64,000 nucleotides of DNA. Origin: an uncultured Gemmatimonadales bacterium. GTDB taxonomy: Bacteria > Gemmatimonadota > Gemmatimonadetes > Longimicrobiales > RSA9. The notes under the pieces were generated by a model, which saw nothing but the letters and a program-made list of their open reading frames with translations, was not told the origin of the DNA and did not search any database. The position numbers and the translations under genes are program-made. Location of the stretch: NCBI GenBank assembly GCA_963708135.1, contig OY970192.1, positions 4,192,001 to 4,256,000 of the forward strand, read 5' to 3'. Positions 19,810 through 52,050 of the stretch are shown piece after piece; the first letter of the stretch is position 1; every line of letters starts with the position of its first letter.

Positions 19810-20337
19810 CTATGCGAGTGGTGCCTGGCCTGCGTCGCTGGAGAACAGGCAGACCTCGGGCGCCCCTTGCGCGAGCGCGACGGTCCGCTCGAAGCGGAAG
19901 GCGAGCTTGCGGAGCACGTTCTCGGAGGCGGCGTTTCCGGGTGCCGTGATGGCCAGGATCCGGTCCAGCCCGAGCGGACCGCGCGCCTCGGCGAGCACGG
20001 CGCGGGCCGCCTCGGTGGCGTAGCCGCGCGCGCGGTGCGGCGCGAGGAAGGCGAAGCCGAGGTCGGGGGCGTCCAGACCGCCGCGGATGAGCAGCCCGCA
20101 GATCCCGATCGGCCCCGGCGCCTCCTTCCGCTCCACGGCGTAGAGGCCGAAGCCGTGAGCCGCGTAGCTTGCCGCGGGCCCGGCCCGAATGTAGGCGCGG
20201 GCATCCTCCACAGTGCGGACGCCGCGGTCCCCGATGTTCTGGATGAAGGCGGCGTCGTTGAGCAGTTCGAGCACGAAGCCGGCGTCGGCCTCGGTGAGCC
20301 GGCGCAGGATGAGGCGGTCGGTCTCGATCGCAGGCAT
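19810..20337 (-). CDS. GNAT N-acetyltransferase (RimJ/RimL-like)
   Basis: IETDRLILRR, GICGL, DLGFAF, RGYATEA, NAASENVLRKL. Confidence 0.88.
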   Translation of the reverse strand: MPAIETDRLILRRLTEADAGFVLELLNDAAFIQNIGDRGVRTVEDARAYIRAGPAASYAAHGFGLYAVERKEAPGPIGICGLLIRGGLDAPDLGFAFLAPHRARGYATEAARAVLAEARGPLGLDRILAITAPGNAASENVLRKLAFRFERTVALAQGAPEVCLFSSDAGQAPLA

Positions 20338-20348
20338 CCGCGGGTTGC

Positions 20349-21728
20349 TCAGGCGGCTTTCCGCCTCCAGAACCAGTAGACGGGTGTGCCGACGAAGACG
20401 ATGGCGAGGCCGACGGCGGCGCGGCCGGGCTGGGTGAAGAGCGTGTTCAGCACGATCGCCGCGGAGGCCAGGACGAAGAGCACGGGCGTGATCGGGTAGC
20501 CGGGCACGCGGAACGGGCGTGGAGCGTCCGGGAGACGTCGCCTGAGGACGAAGACGCTGGCGGCGCCGAGCGCGTAGAAGATCCAGCCGGAGAAGACGAC
20601 GTACGTGAGCAGCTGCTGGAAGGTCCCCGTCAGCGCCATGACCGCCGCCCATGCGGAGGAGACGAGGATCGCGAAGGCCGGCGTGCCGAAGCGCGGGTGC
20701 ACGTCGCCGAGGCGGCGGAAGAAGACGCCGTCGCGGCCCATGCGGTAGTACATGCGCGGCGCGGTGATGGTGAGCCCGTTGGCGGCGCTGAAGATCGAGA
20801 TCATGATCGCCGCGGCGACGAGCTTCGCCGCTCCGGAGCCGAAGAGCGAGTTGGCCGCGTCCGCGGCCACGGCGGAGGAGCCGGCCACGCCGGCGGGACC
20901 GAGCGCGGCGATGTAGCCGATGTTCATGAGCAGGTAGATCAGGATCAGGACCGTGGTGCCGATGGCGATGGCGGCGGGGAAGGTCCGGCTCGGGTCCCGG
21001 GCCTCGCCGGCGGAGAAGGTCACGTACTGCCAGCCCTCGTATGCCCAGAGCACCCCGATCATCGCCGTGCCCAGCGCGGAGAGCAAGCTCAGGTCCCAGA
21101 CGCGCGGCCAGGTCGAGGGGCCCGCGCCGCTGAAGCCGTGGCCAAGCGACAGGAAGAGCGCGCTCAGCACCAGCAGCGCGCCGACCTTGATGGCCGTGCT
21201 CACGTTCTGCACCCGGGCGCTGTCGCGCGTGCCCCGGATGTTGATGCCGGCGATGAGCGCGATCATGATGAGCGGCACCACCTTGTGCCCCACGGCGCCG
21301 AGGGGCGCCAGGCGCTCGAAGTACGACGTGAACGCCACGGCCAGCGTGGCCACGGAGCCGCTCGAGATGACGAAAAAGAAGGTCCAGCCGAGCAGGAAGG
21401 CCGGGAAGCGGCCGAACGCATCGCGCACGTAGACGTAGAGCCCGCCGGCCTCGGGGTTCATCGCGCCGAGCTCGCCGTAGGTCAGCGCGCCAAGCAGCGA
21501 GAGAATGCCCGCCACCAGCCAGACCAGCAGCGTCGGACCGATCACCCCGCCGCTCTCCTGCATCACCGTGCCCGGCACGATGAAGATGCCGGACCCGATC
21601 ACCGCGCCCACGACGATGAGCACCAGGTCGCCGAAGCCCAGCGAGCGCCGGAGCTCGCCGGCGCCCCCCTCCCCCCCGCTCGCGCCCGGCGCCGCGGCTG
21701 CTTCCGTCGTGCCTGTGGTGTCGCGCAT
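20349..21728 (-). CDS. APC family amino acid/peptide permease
   Basis: VGAVIGSGIF, EAGGLYVY, AYEGW, PFRVPGYP; multiple TM helices. Confidence 0.92.
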   Translation of the reverse strand: MRDTTGTTEAAAAPGASGGEGGAGELRRSLGFGDLVLIVVGAVIGSGIFIVPGTVMQESGGVIGPTLLVWLVAGILSLLGALTYGELGAMNPEAGGLYVYVRDAFGRFPAFLLGWTFFFVISSGSVATLAVAFTSYFERLAPLGAVGHKVVPLIMIALIAGINIRGTRDSARVQNVSTAIKVGALLVLSALFLSLGHGFSGAGPSTWPRVWDLSLLSALGTAMIGVLWAYEGWQYVTFSAGEARDPSRTFPAAIAIGTTVLILIYLLMNIGYIAALGPAGVAGSSAVAADAANSLFGSGAAKLVAAAIMISIFSAANGLTITAPRMYYRMGRDGVFFRRLGDVHPRFGTPAFAILVSSAWAAVMALTGTFQQLLTYVVFSGWIFYALGAASVFVLRRRLPDAPRPFRVPGYPITPVLFVLASAAIVLNTLFTQPGRAAVGLAIVFVGTPVYWFWRRKAA

Positions 21729-21731
21729 GCT

Positions 21732-23162
21732 TCAGCTCCCGGTCCGCTTGGCGATGGTGGTCTGTCCCCCCTGGTGCAGCTCCAGCCGGTCGGGCACGCA
21801 CCCGGCGGCGCCGACACGGCAGCCCGAGCTCGCATAGAAGCGGAGCCGGATGCCGTCGAACTCCTTCACGTCGTAGCTCGCCTCGCTCCGCGCGAGCAGC
21901 GTCAGCCGCATGCTGCCGATCACGGCATACGGCTGCCCACCTTCCAGCACGATGCGGATCGGCCCCACCTCACCGGTTTCGTACGTCCCCGTGAGGGATC
22001 GGAGCACCGCGGGCGCCACCGCCACGGCCGGCGCCGGGGGCGGGAACGGGTCCGGCTCGCCCAGCAGGTACGCGGCGATCTTGCGCGAGAGCCGCCCCGA
22101 CGGGAACGCCTCGAAGTTCGACAGCACCAGGACCGAGAGGTGGTCGTCCGGCAGCCGAAGCTCGTCCGTGGCGAAGCCGTTGATGCCGCCACCGTGGGCG
22201 ATCGTACGGTGCGTCCGCGCCTGCGCGTTCGACGCGTACGGCTGCACCTCCCAGCCAAAGCCGTACGGGAACGTGGAATCGTTCGACAGCTTCACGGGCG
22301 TGTACATCTCGGCGTACGCCGACGCCGGGATGAGCGCGTGCCGGTCGAGCGCCTCGTCCCAGCGCGCCAGATCCTCCACAGTCGAGTAGAGCGCGCCCGC
22401 CGAGAACGGCTGCGTCATGTCGAGGTACGTCGCGTTCCGCAGACGACCGTGCTCGTCCATGCGGTAGCCCGACGCGCGCCACCGGACCAGGTCCGCCGTA
22501 TGGTCGTACCCGCTGTGCTCCATCCCCAGCGGCGTGAAGATGTTCTCGCGCAGGAAATCGTCGTAGCTCTGCCCCGACGCCTTCTCGATCACCGCCCCCA
22601 GCAGCACGTAGCCCGAGTTGCTGTACGACCACTTGGTGCCCGGCTCGAAGTCCAGCGGCTCGTTCTTGAAGAAGTCGATCAGCTCCTGCAGCGTCATCGG
22701 ATCTCCCCACTTCTTCCGCCACGCCGGGATCGCCGTGTAGTTGTGCACCCCCGACGTGTGCGTCAGCAGCTGACGGATCGTGATCCGACCCGCGTTCGGA
22801 TAGTCCGGCAGATACTTCGAGAGGGGATCGTCCACCGAGAGCTTGCCGCGCGACTGCAGGATCATGACCGCCATCGATGTGAACTGCTTCGTGATCGATC
22901 CCAGCCGGAACACCGTGCGCGGCTCGTTCGCCACCGCAAGCTCCACGTTCGCCTCGCCGTAGCCCGCGCGGTGGATCACGCTGTCCCCGCGCAGCACCAG
23001 CACGGACGCCCCGGGACCGCGCAGCGGATCGACCATGCTCTCGGCGATCGAGTCGATCGCCGGAATCCGTTGCGCCGCCGCCGTCGTGGCCCCGGCGGCG
23101 AGGATCACGGGAACGAGCAGCGCACGCCGGAGCACCGGCGCGCCCACGCGCGAGTGTGTCAT
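21732..23162 (-). CDS. Secreted class C beta-lactamase-like serine hydrolase
   Basis: SITK, LLTHTSG, YSN, HGG. Confidence 0.9.
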   Translation of the reverse strand: MTHSRVGAPVLRRALLVPVILAAGATTAAAQRIPAIDSIAESMVDPLRGPGASVLVLRGDSVIHRAGYGEANVELAVANEPRTVFRLGSITKQFTSMAVMILQSRGKLSVDDPLSKYLPDYPNAGRITIRQLLTHTSGVHNYTAIPAWRKKWGDPMTLQELIDFFKNEPLDFEPGTKWSYSNSGYVLLGAVIEKASGQSYDDFLRENIFTPLGMEHSGYDHTADLVRWRASGYRMDEHGRLRNATYLDMTQPFSAGALYSTVEDLARWDEALDRHALIPASAYAEMYTPVKLSNDSTFPYGFGWEVQPYASNAQARTHRTIAHGGGINGFATDELRLPDDHLSVLVLSNFEAFPSGRLSRKIAAYLLGEPDPFPPPAPAVAVAPAVLRSLTGTYETGEVGPIRIVLEGGQPYAVIGSMRLTLLARSEASYDVKEFDGIRLRFYASSGCRVGAAGCVPDRLELHQGGQTTIAKRTGS

Positions 23163-23465: not shown

Positions 23466-24188
23466 GTGACAAAACGGAAGGCCGGCAGCAGCGCCAGCGC
23501 GGAGCGTCAGGACCGCGGCACGCGCGCGTACACGCAGCTCCGGGAGCTGATCGTGCACGGCAAGCTCGCTCCCGGGACGTGGATCATCGAGACCGATGTC
23601 GCAGACCGGCTCGGCGTCAGCCGGACGCCGGTGCGCGCGGCGCTGCAGCGCCTCCAGCAGGAGGGCTACATCATCGTGACCGCGCGCGGGCAGCAGTACC
23701 GCGCGGCCGTGGCGCCGCTCACGCGCGACGACTCGCGCGAGCTGTTCGGGATCGTGGGCGAGCTCGAGGCGCTGGCGGCCAGCTGGGCCGCTCAGCTCCC
23801 CGATGGGCGGCGTGCCACGGCGGTGGCCGACCTGCGCCGGCTGAACGGCGACCTGCTGGCCGCGGCGCAGGGGCCGCGGCCGGAGCAGAACGTGCTGTTC
23901 GACCTCGACACGACCTTCCACCGCCGCTACGTCGAGGCGGGCTCCGGGCCCCGTCTGCTCGGGCTGCACGAAGCCATCAAGCCGCAGGCCGAGCGCTACG
24001 TGCGCCTCTACATCAGCGCCCTCGTGGACGAGATCGGCACCTCCGTCGAGGAGCACGACGCGATCGTGGCCGCCATCGAGAGCGGAGACGCGGCGGCATC
24101 GCACCGGGCCGTGGAAACCAACTGGGCCAACGCCGCGGAGCGGCTGGCCCGGGTCATCGACACCGTGGGGGAGCGCGGCAGCTGGTGA
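23466..24188 (+). CDS. GntR family regulator (FCD domain)
   Basis: AYTQLRELIVHGKLAPG...LGVSRTPVRAAL wHTH; DTTFH, EEHDAIV. Confidence 0.9.
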   Translation: MTKRKAGSSASAERQDRGTRAYTQLRELIVHGKLAPGTWIIETDVADRLGVSRTPVRAALQRLQQEGYIIVTARGQQYRAAVAPLTRDDSRELFGIVGELEALAASWAAQLPDGRRATAVADLRRLNGDLLAAAQGPRPEQNVLFDLDTTFHRRYVEAGSGPRLLGLHEAIKPQAERYVRLYISALVDEIGTSVEEHDAIVAAIESGDAAASHRAVETNWANAAERLARVIDTVGERGSW

Positions 24189-24245: not shown

Positions 24246-24292
24246 TTGCGAAGGCGTGGCGTGCCTGTTAACGTAGCGCTACTTGTATACAA
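24246..24292 (+). promoter_or_regulatory. Sigma70-like promoter with GntR-type operator
   Basis: TTGCGA-17bp-TAACGT, then perfect palindrome TTGTATACAA (24283-24292). Confidence 0.7.
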
Positions 24293-24444: not shown

Positions 24445-27400
24445 ATGCTTCCGTCGTATGGAATCGCTCCCCGGTCGGGGGGCGGAGGCCGGCGAGGCCG
24501 CCTGGCGGGGGTGGCGTGGACCGCGAGTCTGGCGGTCGCGCTGCTTACCCTGGCAGCGCCATCGCTCGTGGCACAGGGTGGCTCGGTGGGCGGCACGGTG
24601 GTGGAGGCCAAGACGCTGCGGCCGCTGGCGGGGGCGCAGGTCGTGGTGCAGGGCACCTCGCGGGGCGCGCTGACGGACGCGAACGGCCGTTTCCTGGTGA
24701 CGGGTCTCACGGGCGGCGAGGTGACGCTGCACGTGGTGATGCTGGGCTACAAGGCAGTGGACCAGGCCGTCGCGGTGGGGACGCTGGATGTGCGGATCGG
24801 GCTGGAGGAGGCGGCGGTCGCGCTGAACGAGATCGTGGTGACGGGGCAGCCGGGCGGCACGCAGAAGCGGGCGATCGGCAACTCGATCGCGCAGGTGAAG
24901 GCGGCGGACGTGGTGGCCACGAAGGACGTGCAGAGCGTGCAGGACGTGATCAACGGCCGGGCGCCGGGGGTGGTGGTGATGCCGGGGACGGGGATGATCG
25001 GCAGCGGCTCGCGCATCCGGATCCGCGGCACGAGCACGTTCTCGCTGTCGGGCGACCCGCTGATCTACGTGGACGGCGTGCGGGTGGACAATGAGACGGG
25101 CAGCGGCTTCTCGGTGCAGGCGTTCGGGTCTGGGGTGGTGTCGCGGCTGAACGACTTCAGCCCGGAGGAGATCGAGAGCATCGAGATCCTTAAGGGTCCT
25201 GCGGCGGCGACGCTTTACGGCACGGAGGCGGCGCGCGGGGTGATCAACATCATCACGAAGAAGGGTGCCCCGGGCGGCACGCGCTACTCGTTCACGGTGA
25301 AGCAGGGCGCGAACTGGTTCTCGGACCCGCAGGGGCGGCTGCCGGTGAACTACTGGCGCGATGGGTCGGGGACGGTGCAGAGCCTGAACCTGTACCAGCT
25401 GAACAAGGACAACGGCATCGACCTGTTCCGGACGGGCAACCTGCAGACGTACTCCGCGGGGGTGAGCGGGGGCGCGAGCGGTGTGCGCTACTACGTGAAC
25501 GGCGACCTGTCGCGGAACGACGGGGCGGAGCCGAACAACTTCCGCAACCAGTTCAGCGGGCGGGCGAACGTGCAGATCGAGCCGAGCGAGAAGTTCGACC
25601 TCTCGGCGAACACGGGCTGGATCACGAGCCGGACGGGGCTGTCGTGCGAGGCGGGATGCGGCGGCGCGATGTGGGGGCTGGTGTTCTCGACACCGCACTA
25701 CCTGCCCCAGAACTGCAACTTCGATGGCTGCGGGTTCTACCAGGGCTTCCGGAGCGGTCCGCCGAACCTGGTGGACCGGGCGTTCACGGACCACCAGATG
25801 GTGGGCCGGTTCACGGGCAGCGTGACGATGAACTACCGGCCGGCCAAGTGGATAACGAACAGACTGACGGTCGGCTCGGATGTGACGCAGGAGCAGAACG
25901 TCGAGTACCTGCCGTACCTGACCAACGACACGTCGCGCTACTTCTGGGGGCCGTACTACTCGAACGGCTACAAGGTGCAGACGCGGCGGGCGCTCACCTA
26001 CAACACCTTCGACTACGCGGGCACGCTGAACCTGGACGTGCGGCCGGGCCTCACGAGCGCGACGTCCTTCGGCGCGCAGTACTACCAGAAGCACATCGAG
26101 TTCATCGGCGCGGAGGGTGATGGCTTCGCCGGCGTCGGGATCCAGACCGTCAATGCCGCGGCCACCAAGCCGTACGCGTCGGATGACTTCGTGGACAACA
26201 ACACGCTCGGCGTGTACGGCCAGGAGACGGTCGGGCTGAACGACCGTCTGTTCCTGACGGGCGCGCTGCGCGTGGACAACAACAGCGCGTTCGGCTCGTC
26301 CTTCAACTGGGTCTACTACCCGAAGGCGAGCCTCTCCTGGGTGCTGAACGAGGAGCCCGCGGTGCGGGCCATCCTGCCCCGCTTCGTGGACGCGCTGAAG
26401 CTGCGGCTGGCGTACGGGGAGTCGGGCCAGCAGCCGGTCTCCTTCTCGGCGCTGCGCACGTACTCGCCGGTGACGGGCCCGAACGGCACGCCGTCCATCA
26501 CGCCGAACACGGTGGGCAACCCGGACCTCGGGCCCGAGCGCGGCAAGGAGTTCGAGGGCGGCTTCGACGCCGGGTTCCTCAACGACCGGCTCGCGCTCGA
26601 GTTCACCTACTACAACTCGAAGACGGTGGACGGCATCCTGCTGCGCACGGTGGCGCCGTCGAGCGGCTTCGCGGGCTCGCAGTACGTGAACGCCGGCGCG
26701 ATCCGCAACCAGGGCGTGGAGATCGGGCTGAAGGCGGACCTGCTCGAGAGGAAGAGCTTCGGGTGGGATGCCACCTTCAACTTCTCATCGAACAGCGGGA
26801 AGGTGCTCCAGCTGGCCGGTGGGGACACGACGATCGTGCTCGGCGACCGCCAGTACAAGATCGGCTTCGAGCCGAACGCGTGGTTCCGCGAGCACGTGGT
26901 CAGCGCCCAGCTGGACGCGAACGGCGACGCGATCAAGTCCACCGTCATGTGCGATGACGGCGCGGGCGGCGTGGTGCCGTGCTACACGGGCAGCGTCGTG
27001 ACGGCGCCGCGCGTCTACCTCGGCCGGACGACGCCGGGCATCGAGGGCTCGATCGGCACGGGGATCCGCTTCCTGGGCAACTTCCGCCTGAGCGGGCTGG
27101 TGGACTTCAAGACCAACTACAAGAAGTTCGACAACAACCTGCGCGCGCGCTGCCAGGTCTTCAGCCTGTGCCAGGAGAACATGAACCCGACCCAGTACGA
27201 CCCGGTGTTCATCGCGCAGATGCAGAGCAACAACACCCTGAAGGACTGGATCATCAACGACGCGAGCTTCGCCAAGCTGCGCGAGCTCTCGCTCACCTAC
27301 AACATGCCTTCGCAGGTCGCCCAGCGCATCGGCGCCCACAGCGCGACGCTGAACGTGGCCGCGCGCAACCTGCACACCTGGACGAGCTACACCGGACTCG

Positions 27401-33696: not shown

Positions 33697-33817
33697 TGTA
33701 CACTAGCTTGTACACGGCTGCCCCTGCGGTCAAGGGTTTTGGCGGCGGGGGGGGGGTGGGCACGGGGGGCTTGCGCGGGGGCCGCGCGGCGGCTTACTGT
33801 GCCCGTGTCTGTATACA
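33697..33817. promoter_or_regulatory. Divergent sigma70-like promoters with GntR-like boxes
   Basis: Minus: TTGACC-17bp-CAAGCT with TGTACAC at 33697 and 33709; plus: TTGCGC-18bp-TACTGT then TGTATACA at 33810. Confidence 0.65.
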
Positions 33818-36741: not shown

Positions 36742-36797
36742 GGTCCGGATTTCCGGGCGTGGGCACGGGCCGAAAGCGAAAGCGAAAGAGAATGCGA

Positions 36798-43574: not shown

Positions 43575-46111
43575 TGCGGCGCGCGGCGCGGCCGCCGCTC
43601 CTCCCCGCCCTGCTCGCGGGCGCCGGGGCCCTCTCCATCGCGCTGGGCGGGTGCACGGCGCGCAAGTCGGCACCCGAGGCGGGGGGGGCGGCGGGCAACA
43701 TCGCGGCCACGTCGCAATACGCGCCCGTGGCCGCGGCGCTCGAGCCGTTCATCCGCCACGAGCGGGCGCAGAAGGGGATCCCGGCCATCTCCGTCGCCCT
43801 GGTGGACGGGCAACACATCGTCTGGGCGCAGGGCTTCGGGATGGCGGATTCCGCGGCCGGCGTTCCGGCCACGGCGGAGACGGTCTACCGCGTCGGCTCG
43901 GTCTCGAAGCTGTTCACGGACATCGGCATCATGCAGCTGGTGGAGAAGGGGAAGCTGGACCTGGATGCGCCGGTCGAGCGCTACGTCCCGGAGTTCCACC
44001 CGCGCAACCCGTTTGGCACGCCGATCACGATCCGGGAGCTGACCTCCCACCTGGCCGGCCTGACCCGGGAGCCGCCGGTCGGCAACTACTTCGATGACAC
44101 GGAGCCCTCGCTGCGTGCGACGGTCGAGAGCCTCGACAGCACCACCCTCGTGTACGCGCCGCGCACCCACACCAAGTACTCGAACGCGGGCATCGCGGTG
44201 CTCGGCTACGTGCTCGAGAAGACGCAGGGCGAGTCCTTCTATCCGTACCTGAAGAAGGCCGTGCTCGACCCGATGGGGCTGGCCCACAGCGCATTCCAGC
44301 CGCTGCCGGCGCTCCAGGCCCGGCTGGCGAAGGCGTACATGTGGAGCTGGGACGGCAAGCGCTTCGAGGCACCCACCTTCCAGCTCGGGATCGGCCCGGC
44401 CGGCAGCCTGTACACGACCGTCGAGGACATGGGCCGCTTCATGTCCGTGCTGTTCGACGGCGGGCGCAGCGCCGATGGCCGGCAGATCGTCACCACGGCC
44501 ACCCTCGACTCGATGTGGACGCCGCAGTTCACGCCGGCGGGGCAGACGTCGGGCTACGGGATCGGTTTCCACATCGGCACGCTGGACGGGCACCGCGCCG
44601 TGGGCCACGATGGCGCGATCTACGGCTTCGCGACGGCGCTCGAGGCGCTGCCGGACGACCGGCTCGGCGTCGTGGTCGTGGCCACGCTGGACGGCGCGAA
44701 CACGACCGCAGACCGGATCGCGGCCGCCGCGCTCCGCATGATGCTGGCGCAGAAGGCGGGAACCCCGCTGCCGGTGCCGGACACCACGCGCGCGCTGCCG
44801 CCCGGCAGGGCGCTGGCGCTTCAGGGGCGCTACGCGGCCGGCGGGACGGAGGCCGCGGCGCGCGCGGCGATCAATGCGGCGCCGACTCACGACCTGTCGA
44901 GCGGCAGCTCGTCCCACTTCGGCGCCCCCGAGGTCAGGGCCGTCGATCTGACCGAATACGAGGGCCGTCTCTACCTGATGCCGCTGCGCGGCGGCAGCCG
45001 CGCCGAGATCCGGCAGGCCGCGGACGGCGGCCTCATCGTGGATGACGCGCTGGACTACGGTCAGCGCATCGGGACGCCGACGGAGGGGAGGATCGTGATC
45101 GGTGCGGACACGCTCTCGCGCGTACCGACGCGGCGTCCCGTCGCACTGGTCACCGATCCCCAGCCCGCGCAGCCCGACGCCGCGTTCACGGGCCTCATCG
45201 GCGAGTACGGCTGGGACCACGACGTGCTCTACATCCTGGAGAAGGACGGGCGGCTGAACGCGCTGATCGAGTGGTTCACGGAGTACCCGCTGACGCGCGT
45301 GTCGAAGGACGTCTATGCCTTCCCCCACTGGGGGCTCTACGACGGGCAGAAGATCGTCTTCCACCGCGACGCGCACGGGCAGGCGTACGAGGCCGTGGCC
45401 GCGAACGTCCGCTTCCGCCGCCGCCCGCTGCCCGGGGACGACAACGCGGTCTCGTTCCGCATTACCCCCGTGAAGCCCGTGGCCGAGCTGCGCAAGGAGG
45501 CGCTCGCCGCCCACCCGCCCGCGGAGAAGGGTGAGTTCCGCAAGCCCGACCTGGTCGAGCTGAGGAGTCTCGACCCGACCATCCGCTACGAGATCCGTTA
45601 CGCGGGCACCAACAACTTCATGGGCGCGCCGTTCTACACCTCCTCGCACGCCTTCATGCAGCGGCCGGCGGCGGAGGCGGTGGCGCGCGTCAGCGCGAAG
45701 CTGCGCGCGCTCGGCTACGGGCTCCTCGTCCACGACGCCTACCGCCCGTGGTACGTCACGAAGATGTTCTGGGACGGCACCCCGGTGGACAAGCACGACT
45801 TCGTGGCGGACCCCTCCCAGGGCTCCCGCCACAACCGCGGCTGCGCGGTGGACATCACGCTCTACGACCTCGGGACAGGCCGGTCGCTGCGCATGCCCGG
45901 CGGCTACGACGAGATGTCGGAGCGCTCCTTTCCGCTCTACCCGGGCGGGACCTCGCTCCAGCGCTGGCAGCGCGACGTGCTCCGCCACGCCATGGAGTCC
46001 GAGGGCTTCAACGTCTACGAGTTCGAGTGGTGGCACTTCGACTACAAGGACTGGCGCCACTACCCGATCCTGAACGTCCGCTTCGAGGACCTGGCGCGGA
46101 CGAGCGCGTGA
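43574..46111 (+). CDS. Lipoprotein fusion: class C-like serine hydrolase + D-Ala-D-Ala dipeptidase (M15D, VanX/DdpX-like)
   Basis: LGGC; SVSK, YSN, HDG; C-terminal DAYRP, SRHNRGCAVD, EWWH. Confidence 0.88.
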   Translation: MRRAARPPLLPALLAGAGALSIALGGCTARKSAPEAGGAAGNIAATSQYAPVAAALEPFIRHERAQKGIPAISVALVDGQHIVWAQGFGMADSAAGVPATAETVYRVGSVSKLFTDIGIMQLVEKGKLDLDAPVERYVPEFHPRNPFGTPITIRELTSHLAGLTREPPVGNYFDDTEPSLRATVESLDSTTLVYAPRTHTKYSNAGIAVLGYVLEKTQGESFYPYLKKAVLDPMGLAHSAFQPLPALQARLAKAYMWSWDGKRFEAPTFQLGIGPAGSLYTTVEDMGRFMSVLFDGGRSADGRQIVTTATLDSMWTPQFTPAGQTSGYGIGFHIGTLDGHRAVGHDGAIYGFATALEALPDDRLGVVVVATLDGANTTADRIAAAALRMMLAQKAGTPLPVPDTTRALPPGRALALQGRYAAGGTEAAARAAINAAPTHDLSSGSSSHFGAPEVRAVDLTEYEGRLYLMPLRGGSRAEIRQAADGGLIVDDALDYGQRIGTPTEGRIVIGADTLSRVPTRRPVALVTDPQPAQPDAAFTGLIGEYGWDHDVLYILEKDGRLNALIEWFTEYPLTRVSKDVYAFPHWGLYDGQKIVFHRDAHGQAYEAVAANVRFRRRPLPGDDNAVSFRITPVKPVAELRKEALAAHPPAEKGEFRKPDLVELRSLDPTIRYEIRYAGTNNFMGAPFYTSSHAFMQRPAAEAVARVSAKLRALGYGLLVHDAYRPWYVTKMFWDGTPVDKHDFVADPSQGSRHNRGCAVDITLYDLGTGRSLRMPGGYDEMSERSFPLYPGGTSLQRWQRDVLRHAMESEGFNVYEFEWWHFDYKDWRHYPILNVRFEDLARTSA

Positions 46112-47115
46112 GCGAGACCGTCCGCGTGGCCGTGGTACAGGCGGCGCCGCGCCCGTTCGACCGCGAGGCGGCCGTCCTCCGGGTGCGCGAGCTCGCCCTC
46201 GAGGCGGCCCGCCGCGGCGCGCGGCTCGCCCTCTTCCCCGAGGCCTACATCCCCGCCTACCCGTGGGGCCTCATCTTCGGCACCCGCGTCGGCGGCCGCA
46301 GCGAGGAGGGGCGCCGGCTGTGGCAACGCTACTGGGAGAACGCGGTCGCGGTGGACGAGGAGGGCGACGTCGCCGGCTCCGCCCGCCACGCCCTCTCCGA
46401 CGCCGCCCGCGAGGCGGGGCTCCACCTGGCCGTAGGCGTGGTGGAGCGGGACGCCCGCCACTCCCGCGGCACGCTCTACTGCACGCTGCTTCACTTCGGC
46501 CCCGACGGCCGGCTGCTCGGGAGGCATCGGAAGCTCAAGCCGACCGCCGCCGAGCGCATCATCTGGGGCGAGGGTGATGGCAGCACGCTCCCGGTCGTGG
46601 CGACGCCGCTCGGCCGCGTGGGCGGGCTGATCTGCTGGGAGAACTACATGCCGCTGGCCCGCATGGCCCTCTACGACCGCGGCGTCGAGATCTACCTGGC
46701 GCCCACGGCCGATGCCCGCGACGCGTGGCAGGCCACCATGCGCCACATTGCCGTCGAGGGGCGCTGCTTCGTCCTCGGCTGCAACCAGTACGTGACGCGC
46801 GACCTCTACCCGGCCGACCTGCCCGGGCTCGCCGAGGTCGAGGGCCTCGACCGCGCCGACGGCACGCCCGGCCGGCCGAAGGTGCTCTGCCGGGGCGGCA
46901 GCGTGATCGTCGGCCCGCTGGGGGACGTGCTGGCCGGCCCGCTCTGGGACGAGGAGGGGATCCTCACGGCCGACCTCGACATGGGCGCGCTGCCGCGCGC
47001 GAAGTTCGACTTCGATGTCGTCGGGCACTACGCGCGCCCCGACGTGTTCCGGCTGATCGTGAACGAGGCGCCCGCCGAGCCGGTCGAGCGGCAGGGCGCC
47101 GGGGAGGAAACATGA
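46108..47115 (+). CDS. Nitrilase / carbon-nitrogen hydrolase
   Basis: FPEA, HRKLKPT, ICWENYMP triad; DVVGHYARPD. Confidence 0.9.
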   Translation: MSETVRVAVVQAAPRPFDREAAVLRVRELALEAARRGARLALFPEAYIPAYPWGLIFGTRVGGRSEEGRRLWQRYWENAVAVDEEGDVAGSARHALSDAAREAGLHLAVGVVERDARHSRGTLYCTLLHFGPDGRLLGRHRKLKPTAAERIIWGEGDGSTLPVVATPLGRVGGLICWENYMPLARMALYDRGVEIYLAPTADARDAWQATMRHIAVEGRCFVLGCNQYVTRDLYPADLPGLAEVEGLDRADGTPGRPKVLCRGGSVIVGPLGDVLAGPLWDEEGILTADLDMGALPRAKFDFDVVGHYARPDVFRLIVNEAPAEPVERQGAGEET

Positions 47116-48086
47116 GACGATCACGTCTGGCCACGGCGGCGCTTCTCGCCGGCGTGGGGTCGGCGGCGGCGGGCGTGAGCGCGGCGGCGCAGTCGCCGCT
47201 CGAGGACTCCGTGCGGGCGGTGCTGGCGGGCATCCCGGCGTCGAGCTCCGTCTACGCGCAGCACCTGCCGGACGGGCGCACGCTCGCGATCCGCGCGGAC
47301 GTGCCGATGAACACGGCCAGCGTGATCAAGATCCCGGTCATGGTGCGGGCGTTCCGGGATGCCGAGGCGGGCAGGCTCGACCTCGACGCCCGCTACACCA
47401 TCCGGCCGGAGGACCAGCGCCGCGGATCGGGGCTGCTACAGACGTTTCAGCCGGGGCTCGCGCCGACGTACCGCGACCTGATCACGCAGATGATCATCAC
47501 GAGCGACAACACCGCCACCGACATCATGATCCACACCGTCGGCCTCGCCCGTGTGAACGCGCTCCTCGATTCCCTCGGCTACCGGCAGACGCGGCTGCGC
47601 GAGACCGTCGGCGACGCGTTCCGCGCCGTCTGGGAGCTCGCGAGCCCCGCCAACCAGAAGATGACGGACCGCGAGGTCTTCGAGCGCGGCTTCCCCGCGG
47701 ACAGCGTAGTCGCCCGCAAGATGCCGGCGTTCGTGGCCGACTCCTCCGAGTGGCTGGGCCGAACGACGGCGCGGGAGATCGCGCGCCTGCTCGGGCAGAT
47801 CTACGGCGGCAACCTGGCCAACGCCGAGCACACGAAGGAGATGGTGGGTATCCTGCGCCGGCAGTTCTACACCTCGCGCCTGCCGCGCTACATCCAGGAG
47901 AAGGCGTCCGTCGCCCACAAGACCGGGGACTGGCCGCCCTTCCTGGCCAACGATGTGGGCATCCTGTTCTACAACGGCGGCCCGACCATCGCCGCGGTGT
48001 TCACGAACGGCAACACCGGTCCCTACATCGACGTCGAGCGCGCCATCGGCCGCGTGGCCGAGCTGCTCGTCAACGGCTGGCGCTGA
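47112..48086 (+). CDS. Class A beta-lactamase-fold serine hydrolase
   Basis: Signal peptide; SVIK, SDN, KTG; atypical omega-loop region. Confidence 0.85.
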   Translation: MRRSRLATAALLAGVGSAAAGVSAAAQSPLEDSVRAVLAGIPASSSVYAQHLPDGRTLAIRADVPMNTASVIKIPVMVRAFRDAEAGRLDLDARYTIRPEDQRRGSGLLQTFQPGLAPTYRDLITQMIITSDNTATDIMIHTVGLARVNALLDSLGYRQTRLRETVGDAFRAVWELASPANQKMTDREVFERGFPADSVVARKMPAFVADSSEWLGRTTAREIARLLGQIYGGNLANAEHTKEMVGILRRQFYTSRLPRYIQEKASVAHKTGDWPPFLANDVGILFYNGGPTIAAVFTNGNTGPYIDVERAIGRVAELLVNGWR

Positions 48087-48267: not shown

Positions 48268-48438
48268 GTGAACTCCCCACCCGAGCCCCGGCGCGGAGAC
48301 CGTTGGGGAGTTGACCGCGCTATTCGTTGTCAACTCCCCACGGGTCGGAGGTCCACGGGAACGATCGGGGACTTTACCACGCTATTCGCAGTCAAATCCC
48401 CAACGGTCCATTCCACCACCGATCCGTGAGGACTTTCC
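48268..48438. repeat. Array of palindromic units with 61-62 bp period
   Basis: TGGGGAGTTGAC-N13-GTCAACTCCCCA (48304-48340), degenerate copy 48367-48401, half units at 48268 and 48428. Confidence 0.75.
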
Positions 48439-48723: not shown

Positions 48724-49824
48724 TCAACGGGGCGTCCCCGCGCCCGTCCCCGACTCCCCCGGATTGAACGTGAAGTAGTCGTAGACCGCGCGCGCGATCT
48801 GCGCGATCCCCTTCACCCGCTCCTCTTCCCGCAGCTTCGAGTCCTTGATGAAGAGCGCGACGGCGACGTGTCCGGCGCCGTCCGGCAGCGTGATGATGCC
48901 CACGTCATTGGCCGTGCCGCCGATGGTGCCGGTCTTGTGCGCCACCACGGTGCCGGGCGGGAGCATCCCCTTGATGCGGTCGGGCCCCGTCTGGCAGCGG
49001 CTCATGATGTCGAGCAGCAGGCTCGTGCTCGCGGGGGAGAGCGCCTTGCCGCGCCAGATCCGCGTCAGCAGCGCGAGCATGGCGTCCGGCGTCAACTGGT
49101 CGCGCGGGTCCGAGCTGAAGGCCGCCTCGGCCGCCTGGCGCCGGTCCGCCGGCACCGCCCTGGCCAGCTCGCGGAAGCGCTCCGGCGAGATCGCGCCGTC
49201 GGCCGGGACGTCGGCTACGCCCAGCCAGTCCCCGATGAGCTGCGAGGTGTAGCGGTCCACCCGCAGGCCATCCACCCCCAGCGCCCGCACGCGTGCCGTC
49301 ACCGCGGCGGGGCCGCCCGACAGCCGGTCGCTGAGGTCGGCGGCGCTGTTGTCGCTGATCAGCATCATCAGCTCGAGGATGTTGCGCACCGAGAGGGCGA
49401 CGCCCGGCTTGTTGAACAGGTCGGTCAGCGTGCCGCTGCCCGGGTGCAGGTCCTCGGGCTGGATCGTGACCATGCTGTCGAGCCGGAGCTCGCCCCGATC
49501 GACCCGCGTCAGCACCGCGGTGGCGATCGCCACCTTGTACGTGCTGGCCATGGGGAAGGGCATGTCCGCGTGCAGCGCCACGCGCCGTCCGGTCTCCAGG
49601 TGGACGGCGACGACGCCCATGGTGCCTCCGGAGACCGGCTCCAGCCGCGCGATCTCCCGCTCGAGGCGCGCGAGGCCCGGGTCGGCGGCACGGACCTCGG
49701 CGCGCGCGGCGGCCGGCCGGGCGCCCGTCGCCTGCGCGACGGCTCCGCTCGAGGAGAGGGAGAGCAGCGCGGCGGCGAGCAGCGGCCCGCCCGCGCGGCG
49801 GATGCGCATCGGGTTCACCTTCAT
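48724..49824 (-). CDS. Class A beta-lactamase-like protein with omega-loop insertion
   Basis: FPMASTYK, SDN, HKTGT; VDRYTSQL where Glu166 is expected. Confidence 0.85.
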   Translation of the reverse strand: MKVNPMRIRRAGGPLLAAALLSLSSSGAVAQATGARPAAARAEVRAADPGLARLEREIARLEPVSGGTMGVVAVHLETGRRVALHADMPFPMASTYKVAIATAVLTRVDRGELRLDSMVTIQPEDLHPGSGTLTDLFNKPGVALSVRNILELMMLISDNSAADLSDRLSGGPAAVTARVRALGVDGLRVDRYTSQLIGDWLGVADVPADGAISPERFRELARAVPADRRQAAEAAFSSDPRDQLTPDAMLALLTRIWRGKALSPASTSLLLDIMSRCQTGPDRIKGMLPPGTVVAHKTGTIGGTANDVGIITLPDGAGHVAVALFIKDSKLREEERVKGIAQIARAVYDYFTFNPGESGTGAGTPR

Positions 49825-49936
49825 GGCGGACCTCCTGGATGGATGGGCGGATGCACGGCGCGCGGGCTCGGCGCCAGGCGGGTTCCTCGCGTGGGGGCGG
49901 CGTGGTGCGGCGGACGGCCGGTCGACCGCCCCCCGT

Positions 49937-51058
49937 CTAGCGTGCGAGGGTGGCGCGGCGCACGGTCAGGTCCTCGATCCGGTCGAGGTCCACCTCCACC
50001 CCGAGGCCAGGCCGGTCCAGGGGCACGGCCACCATCCCGTCGGCGTCCATGGTCCATTCCGGCTTCACGATGTCGCGCGCCCAGTAGCGTGCGCTCGGCG
50101 AGAGGTCGCCCGGGATCCGGAAGTTCGGCAGCGAGGCGAGAGCCACGTTGTGCGCCCGTCCGATCCCGCTCTCCAGCATCCCGCCGCACCATACCGGGAT
50201 GTCGTTCTTCGCGCACAGGTCGTGGATCGCGATCGAGACCGCGAAGCCGCCCACCCGGCCCGGCTTGATGTTGATGATGCGGCCGCTGCCGAGCGTGATC
50301 ATGTCCTCCGCCCGGTTGAGCGAGGTGATCGACTCATCGAGGCAGATCGGCGTCCGCAGGCGTCGCTGCAGCGCCGCGTGGCGCACCAGGTCCTCGCGCT
50401 CGAGCGGCTGCTCGATCATGACCAGCTCGAAGGCGTCGAGCTCCGCCAGGTGATCCGCATCCTCGAGGGTGTAGGCGTTGTTGGCGTCTGCCATGAGCGG
50501 CGCGTCGGGAAGCGCCCGCCGCACCGCCCCTACGTACTCCACGTCGTGGCCCGGCTCGATCTTCAGCTTGATCTTGTGGTAGCCCTCCTGGTAGGCGCTC
50601 CGCGCGCGCAGCACGAGGTCCTGCGGCGTCGCCTGGATCCCCAGCGAGATCCCCACCTCGATGCGCGGCCGCGTCCCCCCGAGCCGCCTCGCCAGCGGCA
50701 CCCCCTCCAGCTCCGCCGCGAGCGCCCATACTCCCATCTCGATCGCGGCCTTCGCCATCCGATGGCCGCGGATGCCGTCGTCCAGCATCCCGATCGCATC
50801 CTCCGGGCTCGAGAGCTCGCGCCCCAGGATGCGCGGAGCCAGCCACTTCTCGAGCGCCAGCCACGCGGTGTCGATCGTCTCCGGGCTGTAGTTCGGCTGC
50901 TCGTCCGCCACGCACTCCGACCACGACGTCGCCCCGTCGGGGTGATGCAGCTCCAGCAGACAGATCCGCCGCTCCGACATCACTCCCGACGAGATGCGGA
51001 ACGGCTCCTTGAGCGGAAGATGGATCTCCCGCAGATCGATCGCGTCCACGCGCAGCAT
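49937..51058 (-). CDS. menC: o-succinylbenzoate synthase / N-acyl(succinyl)amino acid racemase (enolase superfamily)
   Basis: KIKLKI, ADAN, IEQP, LDES, NIKPGRVGG, WCGGMLE, GDLSPSARYW; no other men genes nearby, so the racemase role is likelier. Confidence 0.85.
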   Translation of the reverse strand: MLRVDAIDLREIHLPLKEPFRISSGVMSERRICLLELHHPDGATSWSECVADEQPNYSPETIDTAWLALEKWLAPRILGRELSSPEDAIGMLDDGIRGHRMAKAAIEMGVWALAAELEGVPLARRLGGTRPRIEVGISLGIQATPQDLVLRARSAYQEGYHKIKLKIEPGHDVEYVGAVRRALPDAPLMADANNAYTLEDADHLAELDAFELVMIEQPLEREDLVRHAALQRRLRTPICLDESITSLNRAEDMITLGSGRIINIKPGRVGGFAVSIAIHDLCAKNDIPVWCGGMLESGIGRAHNVALASLPNFRIPGDLSPSARYWARDIVKPEWTMDADGMVAVPLDRPGLGVEVDLDRIEDLTVRRATLAR

Positions 51059-51930
51059 CAGGTCTTCGCCCCCCTCTCGGGTCCGGTCAGGACGTAGAAG
51101 CACCGCCCACTCGCCGGATCCCGGTAGAACCCCCGCACCCGGCACCCCGCGCCGAGCGCCCACGCCAGCGCCTCGCGCGTCGGAAGCCGCCAGCGCATCG
51201 CACCCGCACGCCCCGACTCCGCCACCACGGCATCAATGTCCTCCGGGATCTCCAGCCGGACCTCCCGCCCGTACGGCCGCAGCAGCGCGTTCCGCTCCGC
51301 GACCGACAGGCCGTTCAGCACCGGCGCTTCCCCGTGCGCCTGCGCCTGCGCATCCGGCCGCGGCGGCGAGGCCGGCTTCTGCGTGCCGACCTCCCATGAC
51401 ACGATGAAGCGGTCCGTGCCGAAGCCGTGCAGCTCGCTGCCGGTGTCCCCGTACATGTCCTCCACGTGGTCCGTCACCACCGCGCCGAGGAGGTTCAGGT
51501 TCAGGTGCGCGTTGCGCGCCACCAGCGGGTCGAACGTCCAGTATATCCGGCGGATCCCGCGCTCCGCGAGCACCTGCCACTGCAGCCGCTTCAGCCGCCG
51601 CCCGATCCCGTGGTCCCGCAGCTCCCGCCGCACCGCTAGCATGTGCGACCAGTGCACCAGCTCACCATCCTCGATCCCCGTCATCCCGAAGACGAAGCCC
51701 ACCAGCCGGCCCGTGCCATCGAACGCACCCGCCGTGACACCGCCGATCCGATTGGTGATCTTCAGGATCGTGGCGGGTATTACCTCGTTGAAGCCTTCGC
51801 CCCACGTGTCGCGCTGCAGCTCCAGGCACGCGTGGTATTCCTCCCGCGTGTGGAGCAGCCGGATCTCCATCGCGCGCAGCGCCGGATCCGGCGAGGCAGT
51901 CAGATGTGGAGAAGACTCGTAGGTAGCCAT
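51058..51930 (-). CDS. GNAT acyltransferase of the NSAR-associated type (putative D-amino acid N-succinyltransferase)
   Basis: HWSHMLAV, WTFDPLVARNAHLN, DMYG, TDRF; stop overlaps racemase start. Confidence 0.8.
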   Translation of the reverse strand: MATYESSPHLTASPDPALRAMEIRLLHTREEYHACLELQRDTWGEGFNEVIPATILKITNRIGGVTAGAFDGTGRLVGFVFGMTGIEDGELVHWSHMLAVRRELRDHGIGRRLKRLQWQVLAERGIRRIYWTFDPLVARNAHLNLNLLGAVVTDHVEDMYGDTGSELHGFGTDRFIVSWEVGTQKPASPPRPDAQAQAHGEAPVLNGLSVAERNALLRPYGREVRLEIPEDIDAVVAESGRAGAMRWRLPTREALAWALGAGCRVRGFYRDPASGRCFYVLTGPERGAKT

Positions 51931-52006
51931 GCAGCGGTCGTTTGGGTGGGCGGCTCTGGCAGCGCGTGCAGGCGCTTGGCAGCGCGCACTGGCGGTGCCG
52001 GCCAGG

Positions 52007-52050
52007 TGTGTACATGCTAACACGCGTCATGGTATCCGGCAAGGTATACA
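52007..52050 (-). promoter_or_regulatory. Sigma70-like promoter with GntR-like boxes
   Basis: Minus TTGCCG-17bp-TAGCAT; boxes TGTGTACA (52007), GGTATCCG (52031), GGTATACA (52043). Confidence 0.65.

Follow-up and report, generated by a model that had tools for sequence, protein, structure and literature searches.

A candidate locus for the uptake and salvage of peptides bearing D-amino acids in an uncultured Gemmatimonadales bacterium

Introduction

Why would a bacterium place two SusC/SusD-type outer membrane transporters amid a crowd of exported hydrolases and not one glycosidase? The question is raised by a locus at positions 19810-51930 of a stretch of 64,000 nucleotides (hereafter the window; positions 4,192,001 to 4,256,000 of contig OY970192.1, assembly GCA_963708135.1) from an uncultured Gemmatimonadales bacterium. 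The initial annotation, made from the letters of the window alone, had proposed a locus resembling a polysaccharide utilization locus (PUL), which would import D-amino-acid peptides, trim them in the periplasm and recycle their D-residues to L-amino acids. Our analysis inclines us, on balance, toward a regulated system that takes up and salvages peptides bearing D-amino acids, for which stem peptides of peptidoglycan and comparable remains of dead bacteria are the likeliest substrates. D-amino acids in peptidoglycan and in other bacterial peptides make up a large and slowly degraded pool of nitrogen and carbon in soils and sediments, and the nutrition of Gemmatimonadota and Acidobacteriota, two abundant and poorly cultured soil phyla, is mostly guessed. 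If true, the proposal would provide both phyla with a concrete route for feeding on necromass, give the N-succinyl/N-acylamino acid racemase (NSAR) a natural physiological role beyond Firmicutes and Actinobacteria, and extend the reach of SusCD-type transport to D-peptides outside Bacteroidota.

Results

Organization of the locus

The G+C content of the window (68-77%) makes open reading frames alone misleading, and genes were therefore called by their third-position G+C (GC3), then named with Pfam (E<=1e-5) and the curated cut-offs of NCBIfam, several starts being refined afterwards. The locus opens with a minus-strand run of S12a, an APC permease and GNAT175, followed by a plus-strand run of a GntR/FCD regulator, SusC1 and SusD1 and by the minus-strand pair SusC2 and SusD2 (Table 1). 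Next comes a nine-gene plus-strand run (33956-48086) in which S12b, an M19-like protein, S12c, the D-aminoacylase-like (DAA-like) protein DAA540, the CocE/NonD hydrolase CocE634, S12d, a fusion of S12 and VanX domains, a nitrilase and ClsA310 are separated by gaps of at most 50 nucleotides or overlap by 4 nucleotides; GNAT270, NSAR373 and ClsA366 form the minus-strand end of the locus. Every class of gene listed in the initial annotation was recovered in its place by the GC3 calls, Pfam and NCBIfam, and to that list we add the GntR/FCD regulator and a second GNAT protein (GNAT175), both of which it lacked. Its remark that no glycosidase lies inside the locus holds as well, Pfam having detected no glycoside hydrolase, lyase or carbohydrate esterase family among the 22 locus proteins scanned in the interval 19810-52050. 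Judged by eye from the N-termini and with no predictor, Sec-type signals are present in S12a-d, the DAA-like protein, CocE634, both class-A-fold proteins (ClsA310 and ClsA366) and both SusC, a lipobox in both SusD and in the S12-VanX fusion, and a twin-arginine signal in the M19-like protein, while the nitrilase, NSAR373 and both GNATs have none. Thus every hydrolase but the nitrilase appears to be exported, in agreement with the earlier statement that most of them are.

A racemase-acyltransferase pair and an S12-VanX fusion

The D-to-L racemization module put forward at the outset stands as far as the racemase and its putative acyltransferase are concerned. NSAR373 exceeds the cut-off of its subfamily model, aligns with solved N-acylamino acid racemases from Deinococcus, Thermus and Amycolatopsis at 1e-96 to 2e-91, and possesses the complete set of catalytic motifs (K162xK164, D191, E216, D241 and K265-P-G-R268, the R266 equivalent), the roles of the catalytic lysines and of R266 being those reported for NSAR/OSBS enzymes; the DgcA model reaches only 105 bits on this protein. 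Translationally coupled to it is GNAT270, whose AlphaFold (AF2) model (predicted local distance difference test score, pLDDT, 88.5) matches Naa60, RimI, PA4866, ArsN and FeeM over about 180 residues with a Foldseek probability of 1.0. These first 180 residues or so resemble amino-acid and small-molecule N-acetyltransferases and are followed by an extra C-terminal domain; the family numbers over 6437 proteins, most of them labelled "predicted GNAT superfamily acetyltransferase". What does not stand is the completeness of the module in one place, the third enzyme expected, an M20 amidohydrolase, having its one good homologue in the genome (E 1e-65 to 3e-70) at 2532325-2533515, 1.7 Mb from the locus. 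No M55 D-aminopeptidase was found in the source genome.

An OSBS role for NSAR373 was considered and rejected. The genome holds two MqnA/D genes (PF02621) over cut-off and no MenB over cut-off (best 153 versus 342.7 bits, in a search that left MenD and MenE aside), which together indicate the futalosine route to menaquinone, so that OSBS activity should be dispensable.

The second element is the 846-aa S12-VanX lipoprotein, in which an S12 serine hydrolase domain (PF00144, 229.9 bits; SVSK and YSN motifs) is joined through a middle domain to an M15 domain of the D-Ala-D-Ala dipeptidase type (PF01427, 112.6 bits against a cut-off of 27). The VanX motifs SRHNRGCAVD and EWWH are invariant in seven orthologues, and the protein stays under the DdpX equivalog cut-off (134.8 < 176). 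Stem peptides ending in D-Ala-D-Ala are the substrates to which the VanX domain points, and among the exported enzymes this domain is the only one for which D-specificity is strongly implied. SxxK, YxN and HxG motifs are intact in all five PF00144 proteins, the third motif of the fusion being read from the alignment pattern H[GD]GAIYGF. The best solved relatives of S12a are Pab87 (2QMI, 7.5e-40), the alkaline D-peptidase 4Y7P, the R61 DD-peptidase 1CEF and the D-aminopeptidase 1EI5, with a D-amino acid amidase also among its matches.

Conservation in Gemmatimonadota and Acidobacteriota

An alignment of seven orthologues of the fusion, run against species-representative genomes, yielded at least 685 confirmed relatives and returned 79 loci, which by title belong to Gemmatimonadota (34), Acidobacteriota (38), Planctomycetota (5) and others (2). 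The closest relatives of the fusion, up to 71% identical, come from metagenome-assembled genomes titled Gemmatimonadales and Gemmatimonadaceae, which supports an affiliation of the source organism with Gemmatimonadota. Its VanX part is matched in at least 18 of 40 relatives among the matches listed (including the unpublished G016, G019 and G026). Gene content was then counted by tblastn of the window proteins in 52 loci of at least 12 kb, 21 of them from Gemmatimonadota; the relatives are non-independent, and the counts are to be read as recurrence and not as a test. GC3 calling is unsuited to the lower-GC loci of Acidobacteriota, where longest-reading-frame calling between tblastn matches was used. 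Below, L028, L030, L033, L035 and L037 denote SusCD loci of the source genome, L039 and higher L codes related loci in other genomes, and G codes the genomes of relatives.

Two phyla, Gemmatimonadota and Acidobacteriota, have the core in common. In Gemmatimonadota it comprises SusC1/D1, two or three S12, the DAA-like protein, the S12-VanX fusion, GNAT270, NSAR, the APC permease and GntR, and the same set minus SusCD recurs in Acidobacteriota. Across the 52 loci the DAA-like gene was found in 23, a further S12 in 19, the APC permease in 19 (as an orthologue of 55-69% identity adjoining GNAT270-NSAR), NSAR in 17, GNAT270 in 14 (next to NSAR in most of them), CocE in 11, and the M19-like protein and ClsA366 in 2 each. 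GntR (6 of 52, with orthologues of 48-66% identity) and SusC and SusD (6 and 7 of 52) occur only among the 21 Gemmatimonadota loci. The fullest counterpart is L039, from a Gemmatimonadales metagenome-assembled genome, in which GntR, SusC1 (66%), SusD1 (61%), S12c (56%), DAA (74%), S12d (64%), fusion (71%), GNAT270 (50%), NSAR (70%) and APC (69%) are collinear on a single strand, with 4-nucleotide overlaps at five junctions; L054 and L058 are rearranged versions of the module. SusC1 orthologues (44-66%) stand beside the module in L039, L040, L041, L051, L111 and L115, and also in G008. Orthologues of S12c are 49-59% identical in L039, L054, L058, L078 and L105 and 52% in G008, those of S12d (50-64%) adjoin the fusion in L039, L054, L058 and L059, and an orthologue of ClsA366 adjoins NSAR in L058 and L092.

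In eight Acidobacteriota loci GNAT270, NSAR and the fusion are found together, accompanied by the APC permease in seven and by the DAA-like gene in six. An RpiR regulator occupies the place of GntR in L057, L074, L080, L083 and L089, and a TonB-dependent receptor of another type, of about 1100 aa, replaces SusCD; Pfam bears this identity out in L057 and L089, whereas reading frames of similar size in L074, L080 and L083, which lay outside the Pfam scan, are likened to it by size only. None of NSAR, DAA, GNAT270 and M19 was found in any of the five Planctomycetota or other loci.

Synteny around the fusion is partial in six relatives. G009 gathers two GntR genes, an extracytoplasmic function (ECF) sigma factor, GNAT270 (51%), NSAR (68%) and the fusion inside 20 kb, DAA adjoins VanX in G017 and G018, and in three others, complete genomes belonging to the same order, the fusion stands alone. 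Close orthologues of SusC1/D1 are tied to the module elsewhere: G008 has SusD1-SusC1 and DAA (68%)-S12c-S12d, and SusD1 directly adjoins the fusion in G002:C764 and in the unpublished G016:C19. Orthologues of the M19-like protein (at least 57% identity) occur in 4 of 40 relatives, directly after SusD and before S12 in G002:C658 and G016:C113 (the latter unpublished).

Genes of the related loci that match no window protein were scanned with Pfam and NCBIfam. L054 has an M20 acyl-L-amino-acid amidohydrolase of the TIGR01891 subfamily (336 bits > 153) in the interval from NSAR to APC, and in L081 another M20 adjoins NSAR, which completes in these loci the GNAT, NSAR and M20 pathway described for Geobacillus kaustophilus. 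An M55 D-aminopeptidase (DppA) is present in L059 and L062, a D-Ser-dehydratase-like protein (PF14031) follows DAA in L080 and L089, and L092 adds a canonical M19 and an asparaginase.

Clustering within the genome and a shared promoter motif

The genome is a single contig of 5.45 Mb in which 4228 genes were called. By phmmer it encodes 27 S12, 13 SusD, 17 strong SusC, 7 DAA-like, 6 CocE/NonD, 5 class-A-fold, 2 M19 and 1 NSAR proteins. The clustering goes far beyond chance: five S12 in a span of 13 genes have a probability of about 5e-5 under random placement, and an S12 gene lies within seven genes of SusD in 6 of 12 SusD loci (random mean 1.13, P about 1e-4). Of the other SusCD loci of the genome, at least six hold enzymes of the peptidase or amidase kind (S12, S15, gamma-glutamyltransferase, tricorn, M1, met-zincin, penicillin amidase), and the sole classical glycosidase found in the whole set belongs to a GH3-S12 fusion accompanied by amino-sugar genes.

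The 5.45 Mb contain 14 copies of the palindrome TGTATACA. Thirteen of them are intergenic, in 12 intergenic regions, and half of these regions flank S12 or SusC genes, which themselves flank 2.2% of the intergenic length (binomial P 1e-7). The six are the GntR-SusC1 interval, the SusC2/S12b region, those upstream of SusC in L028 and in L037, that between S12 and Amidohydro_2 of L035 (two copies) and that of one lone S12. The motif is kept at equivalent promoters in L039, L054, L056, L081, L111, L115 and G008. Half-like sites TGTACAC stand at 33697 and 33709 in the SusC2/S12b region, and GTGTACAT at 52008 upstream of GNAT270. A GT...AC type of GntR operator is known, with which TGTATACA agrees, and GntR/FCD paralogues of this kind number only two in the genome, one here and one in the SusCD locus L037. 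From the distribution and conservation of the motif we infer that the GntR/FCD protein acts through TGTATACA operators. A scan of 33300-52200 gave no sigma-70-like promoter and one terminator-like site, fewer than in shuffled sequences, and is uninformative. A look through sequencing runs with 34000-43900 as the query listed no RNA data set that contains this stretch.

Four other SusCD loci of the genome deserve description in their own right. L037 (C1:5147771-5161064), which holds the closest in-genome paralogue of SusD2 (50%), reads GntR-S12-SusD-SusC-PGA_cap ... MR_MLE with TGTATACA upstream of SusC and looks like a small counterpart of the locus; the best match of its PGA_cap protein is MslH, the Trp epimerase of a lasso peptide (243 bits < 700), and its MR_MLE protein is nearest to the N-acetyl-D-Glu racemase DgcA (256 bits < 400) and to L-Ala-D/L-Glu epimerase, all below cut-off. 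L028 (C1:305526-316604) contains S12, a gamma-glutamyltransferase over cut-off, SusC with a TTGTATACAA site upstream, SusD, an S15 CocE/NonD hydrolase and a paralogue of GNAT270. L030 (C1:579118-594722) encodes the GH3 and S12 (PF00144) fusion, of 1004 aa, two SSF transporters, NagB/PIG-L and a BadF-type kinase ahead of a SusCD pair, and looks like a locus for amino-sugar or muropeptide salvage. In L033 (C1:3112254-3121734) a penicillin amidase (PF01804, 389 bits) is near SusD, and SusC is apparently truncated to a 299-aa barrel fragment.

Other features of the locus and its surroundings

Both SusC proteins score above the TIGR04056 cut-off, and on the short SusC signature TIGR04057 SusC1 and SusC2 fall just under the cut-off (41.3 and 41.0 versus 46.2); SusD1 gave no Pfam match at E<=1e-5. 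The APC permease scores 277 bits with TIGR00911, under its cut-off. CocE634 is closest to alpha-amino acid ester hydrolases (1MPX at 3.5e-151) and also matches 4PF1 at 6e-156, and the best solved match of the M19-like protein is 2I5G rather than the PvdM structure 3B40. All coordinates are collected in Table 1.

Table 1. Genes and motif copies of the locus, with positions in the window and the family evidence for each
Feature	Position	Strand	Description
GNAT175	19810..20337	-	Acetyltransf_3 family, no signal peptide; PF13302 92.5 bits; last of the S12a-APC-GNAT175 run
APC permease	20349..21728	-	LAT-like APC-superfamily amino-acid permease; PF13520 190.9 bits
S12a	21732..23147	-	Exported S12 serine hydrolase; PF00144 249.9 bits; SITK/YSN/HGG
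GntR/FCD regulator	23466..24188	+	PF00392 and PF07729
TGTATACA palindrome	24284..24291	.	Inside TTGTATACAA, between GntR and SusC1; proposed operator
SusC1	24445..27501	+	SusC/RagA-type TonB-dependent transporter; TIGR04056 457.6 bits > 368.25
SusD1	27513..28796	+	SusD-like lipoprotein, LAGC lipobox; 41-42% identical to SusD2
SusD2	28913..30253	-	SusD/RagB lipoprotein, FGGC lipobox; PF07980 57.1 bits > 23.1
SusC2	30319..33420	-	SusC/RagA-type TonB-dependent transporter; TIGR04056 443.4 bits > 368.25
TGTATACA palindrome	33810..33817	.	SusC2/S12b divergent promoter region
S12b	33956..35527	+	Exported S12 with DUF3471; PF00144 202.8 bits, PF11954; SSSK/YNN/HGG; first of the nine-gene run
M19-like protein	35524..36741	+	Twin-arginine signal, non-canonical metal site; PF01244 240 bits
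S12c	36792..38366	+	Exported S12 with DUF3471; Pfam and motifs
DAA540	38414..40075	+	Exported D-aminoacylase-like amidohydrolase (Amidohydro_3); best solved relative 1M7J, 4.3e-63
CocE634	40108..42012	+	Exported S15 CocE/NonD hydrolase; TIGR00976 264 bits > 66
S12d	42039..43574	+	Exported S12 with DUF3471; Pfam and motifs
S12-VanX fusion	43571..46111	+	Lipoprotein made up of S12, middle and M15 (D-Ala-D-Ala dipeptidase) domains
Nitrilase	46108..47115	+	CN hydrolase, no signal peptide; PF00795 189 bits; translationally coupled on both sides
ClsA310	47112..48086	+	Exported class-A-fold protein; PF13354 202 bits; bla_class_A 97.6 bits < 200
ClsA366	48724..49824	-	Exported class-A-fold protein (PF13354); NF033103 227.5 bits > 200; STYK/SDN/KTG
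NSAR373	49937..51058	-	N-succinyl/N-acylamino acid racemase, NSAR/OSBS subfamily (MR_MLE); TIGR01928 329.5 bits > 200.65
GNAT270	51058..51930	-	Acyltransferase, 290 aa in the database gene model; weak PF00583; 1-nucleotide overlap with NSAR373
Degenerate motif copy GGTATACAGAGG	52043..52054	.	Upstream of GNAT270; one mismatch to the extended consensus; weak evidence

Several repeats accompany the genes. Between the convergent ClsA310 and ClsA366 lies a dispersed repeat of about 175 nucleotides with internal hairpins (48271-48448), which has at least 24 genome copies at 84-90% identity by blastn and looks like a miniature inverted-repeat transposable element or a repetitive extragenic palindrome; a short tandem run of GGCGCACCC units (48150-48200) stands directly past the stop of ClsA310. 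GAAAGCGAA/GAATGCGAA repeats are common to two intergenic stretches, 36742-36839 and 38367-38452, and encode the near-identical, positively charged "MRMR(K/D)" signal-peptide starts of S12c and of the DAA-like protein.

Outside the locus, a second DAA-like amidohydrolase of 579 aa (7179-8918; E 2e-122 to DAA540), likewise without the HxH motif, lies 11 kb upstream amid unrelated genes. A 1091-aa Sortilin/BNR-repeat protein (13833-17108) is one of 19 genome paralogues, and relatives of it (35-41%) are near the fusion in G009, G027, L054, L070 and L106. Directly adjoining the locus, 52123-58563 encodes an ECF sigma factor, a pair of small proteins with no name and an efflux set of the TolC-MacA-MacB type; ECF and MacAB relatives are also near NSAR in G017. 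A DUF1501 and DUF1800 gene pair occupies the minus strand at 2057-5182.

Discussion

How could such a set of genes work together? By analogy with RagAB, the two SusC/SusD-type transporters would capture peptides at the outer membrane and bring them inward. At the surface or in the periplasm, the S12-VanX lipoprotein, the four other S12 proteins, the alpha-amino acid ester hydrolase-like S15 enzyme, the atypical M19-like and D-aminoacylase-like proteins and the two class-A-fold proteins would, to judge from their families, trim the peptides to free amino acids, which the APC permease would then move across the inner membrane. In the cytoplasm GNAT270 is predicted to N-acylate the D-amino acids and NSAR373 to racemize the N-acyl-D form to the L form, from which an N-acyl-L-amino-acid amidohydrolase of the M20 family, whose gene is distant from the locus here and within it in relatives, would free the L-amino acid; the pathway itself is known from Geobacillus, and its assignment here follows from the gene families. 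Control of the operons would fall to the GntR/FCD protein, acting at TGTATACA operators that three further SusCD-peptidase loci have as well. The conservation of the core, together with the D-specific families that relatives add to it (M55, the D-Ser-dehydratase-like protein and M20), supports this sequence of uptake, periplasmic trimming and D-to-L conversion. The claim of D-peptide import and periplasmic trimming made at the outset thus gains from the conserved core, with the D-specificity of the S12 proteins, as of the S15, DAA-like and M19-like ones, being presumed from their relatives.

It is tempting to go one step further, to a picture that we hold with less than even confidence. Gemmatimonadota and Acidobacteriota might share a hitherto undescribed D-peptide system in which TonB-dependent importers (SusCD or the other receptor) deliver necromass peptides to the S12-VanX protein and to an M19-like and a DAA-like subfamily of the amidohydrolase superfamily, both of them new and mononuclear, with the GNAT-NSAR-M20 route as its end and a GntR/TGTATACA regulon spanning four SusCD-peptidase loci. 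Should the salvage reading hold, it would draw attention to enzymes of possible interest for D-amino-acid and D-peptide biocatalysis, namely the Glu/His/His clade of D-aminoacylase-like proteins, the M19-like clade exported by the twin-arginine route and the S12-VanX fusion.

Several observations weigh against a dedicated system for D-peptides. The first concerns two enzymes with non-canonical metal sites. The "M19 dipeptidase" of the initial annotation keeps only two of the five canonical zinc ligands, reported as His20, Asp22, Glu125, His198 and His219: the HxD pair (His20, Asp22) is lost and Glu125 is replaced by Gln, with His198 and His219 kept; the protein may be non-catalytic. Its orthologues share these losses, the canonical M19 of L092 and the second M19 of the genome have all five ligands, and a solved PvdM homologue has been reported without a zinc site. 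The "D-aminoacylase" DAA540 also departs from the canonical pattern. The ligands of AfDam (Cys, His and His, with a catalytic Asp and an HxH motif on strand 1) are retained in part: the two His and the Asp are kept, and HxH has become DMMDQ and the Cys position GGEGG. These changes recur in ten of ten close orthologues and in linked paralogues, and mark a distinct subfamily by its sequence, not a canonical D-aminoacylase. Sister enzymes of this fold (OngB type) are reported to deacetylate an oxidized amino sugar. We set aside an OngB-type identity for DAA540 and keep it as a caveat, AfDam being nearer (4e-63) than PpOngB (3.5e-46) and the conserved neighbors being amino-acid genes.

The same side of the balance receives the breadth of the S12 family, the match list of S12a including LACTB (a protease of L-peptides), esterases and acyltransferases, so that D-specificity is no more than presumed for the five S12 proteins. 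It also receives the uneven linkage of the genes. Conservation of the cluster, named beforehand as decisive, was found for the core in Gemmatimonadota and for its SusCD-free part in Acidobacteriota, and was not found by tblastn for the nitrilase, ClsA310 and GNAT175 (each in 0 of 52 related loci); GNAT175 is a weak member of the locus. SusCD is linked to the module in just 6-7 of the 21 Gemmatimonadota loci, and more distant homologues of SusC1/D1 and SusC2/D2 (41-49%) are unlinked to it. In 26 of the 52 loci no NSAR, DAA, GNAT270 or M19 was detected at a distance of up to 10 kb from the fusion, and these loci include those of three complete genomes, from the same order, where the fusion is alone. 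The locus of the source genome has no M20 inside it, the GNAT270 paralogue of L028 is without an NSAR, and TGTATACA may be part of a promoter instead of an operator for GntR.

Of the other explanations, the one that survives best, and which we still consider unlikely, is a locus for general uptake of oligopeptides and protein debris with no special link to D-amino acids, in which NSAR and GNAT merely lie nearby and the S12, S15 and M19-like proteins are ordinary amino- and carboxypeptidases. RagAB is reported to import ordinary peptides, the S12 family has L-specific and esterase members, and other SusCD loci of this genome hold ordinary peptidases (tricorn S41, M1, gamma-glutamyltransferase, met-zincin) together with Opp ATPases. 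Mere proximity, however, fits poorly with the physical coupling of the VanX domain, NSAR and GNAT270 to S12 genes in two phyla, with an S12 domain welded to a D-Ala-D-Ala dipeptidase, or with the D-aminopeptidase and D-Ser-dehydratase-like genes added in relatives.

Remodelling or recycling of the bacterium's own peptidoglycan by the exported S12, class-A-fold and VanX proteins, the cytoplasmic module reclaiming the D-amino acids, seems to us improbable. AmpH-type and PBP4B-type models are among the NCBIfam matches of the S12 proteins, the class-A-fold proteins resemble PBP-A Tll2115, and the signals seen by eye would place the enzymes in the periplasm; but two outer-membrane importers here, and a TonB-dependent receptor of another type in Acidobacteriota, point to external uptake, and a distribution as patchy as that of the fusion (about 18 of 40 relatives among the matches listed) is unlike a housekeeping role.

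Even less credit can be given to an island for detoxification or catabolism of beta-lactams or peptide antibiotics, built on beta-lactamase-fold enzymes, an acylase of the ester hydrolase type and a renal-dipeptidase-like protein. Alpha-amino acid ester hydrolases act on the side chains of ampicillin and cephalexin, and CocE634 matches them at about 1e-150; ClsA366 is over the NCBI class A beta-lactamase cut-off, and a penicillin amidase sits at another SusD locus. Yet the five S12 proteins reach just 81-109 bits with the class C beta-lactamase model NF033085, whose cut-off is 415 bits, the omega loop of ClsA366 aligns without Glu166, and its best solved relative, LRA-5, likewise lacks Glu166 in its wild-type form and is reported to confer no resistance. 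Pfam found no downstream catabolic genes for antibiotic side chains in the locus, whose conserved partners are amino-acid salvage genes. The beta-lactam-type substrates entertained by the initial annotation thus find nothing specific in their favor, and the label "beta-lactamase", where automatic annotation gives it to genes of such genomes, probably covers enzymes that process peptides. Finally, paralogous hydrolase genes might simply have gathered here without acting together, as a genome so rich in S12 (27), SusD (13), DAA-like (7) and CocE (6) genes and the fusion standing alone in half of the related loci might suggest; this is hardly credible given the tight operon spacing, the collinearity of L039, the sub-modules recurrent across phyla and the shared rare promoter motif.

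Having weighed these alternatives, we return to uptake and salvage of peptides that contain D-amino acids and compare it with known systems. No description of the present module was found in the literature searched, supplementary files lying outside its scope, and what comes nearest in print is RagAB, the pathway of Geobacillus, the PvdM homologues and a gene-context note on strain NOR5-3. RagAB of Porphyromonas gingivalis is described as a SusCD-type oligopeptide importer: like it, the locus combines a SusC/RagA barrel with a SusD/RagB lipoprotein lid and has no glycosidases nearby, RagAB being reported to handle peptides and not glycans. Unlike RagAB, the locus belongs to Gemmatimonadota, sets two pairs amid some twelve exported hydrolases, and adds a putative cytoplasmic D-to-L module and a GntR regulator. 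In Geobacillus kaustophilus, GNAT, NSAR and M20 enzymes are reported to convert D- to L-amino acids, and here too translational coupling links an NSAR/OSBS-subfamily racemase with a GNAT protein, M20 joining them in L054 and L081; GNAT270 is likened to the Geobacillus transferase by gene context and not by sequence comparison. The differences are that M20 is remote in this genome and that importers of the outer membrane, exported peptidases and an APC permease accompany the module. A comparable logic of acylation, racemization and deacylation underlies the DgcN-DgcA pathway for D-glutamate, described as an N-acetyltransferase acting with an N-acetyl-D-Glu racemase of the enolase superfamily, and the paralogous locus L037 has a DgcA-like MR_MLE protein; NSAR373, unlike DgcA, belongs to the NSAR/OSBS subfamily, and the acyltransferase family of DgcN differs from that of GNAT270.

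With VanX and DdpX the locus shares an M15 domain with SxHxxGxAxD and ExxH motifs and a dipeptidase coupled to a nutrient uptake system, which in the ddp operon of E. coli is an ABC importer of the Dpp type. Here, in contrast, the domain is the C-terminus of an exported lipoprotein fused to S12, and uptake would rely on TonB-dependent transporters and an APC permease. Periplasmic M19-like PvdM homologues without zinc sites have been linked to TonB-dependent uptake and to peptides containing D-amino acids, and the protein of the locus is likewise a periplasmic M19-fold protein that has lost zinc ligands and is tied to a TonB-dependent transporter; it differs in keeping both Zn2 histidines, where PvdM keeps one, in its twin-arginine signal and in the lack of a pyoverdine context. 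The PULs of Bacteroidota offer the likeness of tandem susC/susD genes accompanied by exported degradative enzymes and a dedicated regulator. Membership of that type cannot be claimed: no carbohydrate-active enzymes stand next to susC/susD, their place being taken by peptidases and amidohydrolases, the regulator is of the GntR/FCD family and the host is not a member of Bacteroidota. A further parallel is the observation in the gammaproteobacterium NOR5-3 of a TonB-dependent transporter gene next to that of a D-aminoacylase, with derivatives of N-acyl-D-amino acids as predicted substrates (Tang et al. 2012). Only one pair of genes is involved there, the phylum is another, and peptidases, VanX and a racemase module are lacking, whereas the locus described here brings all of these together with its transporters.

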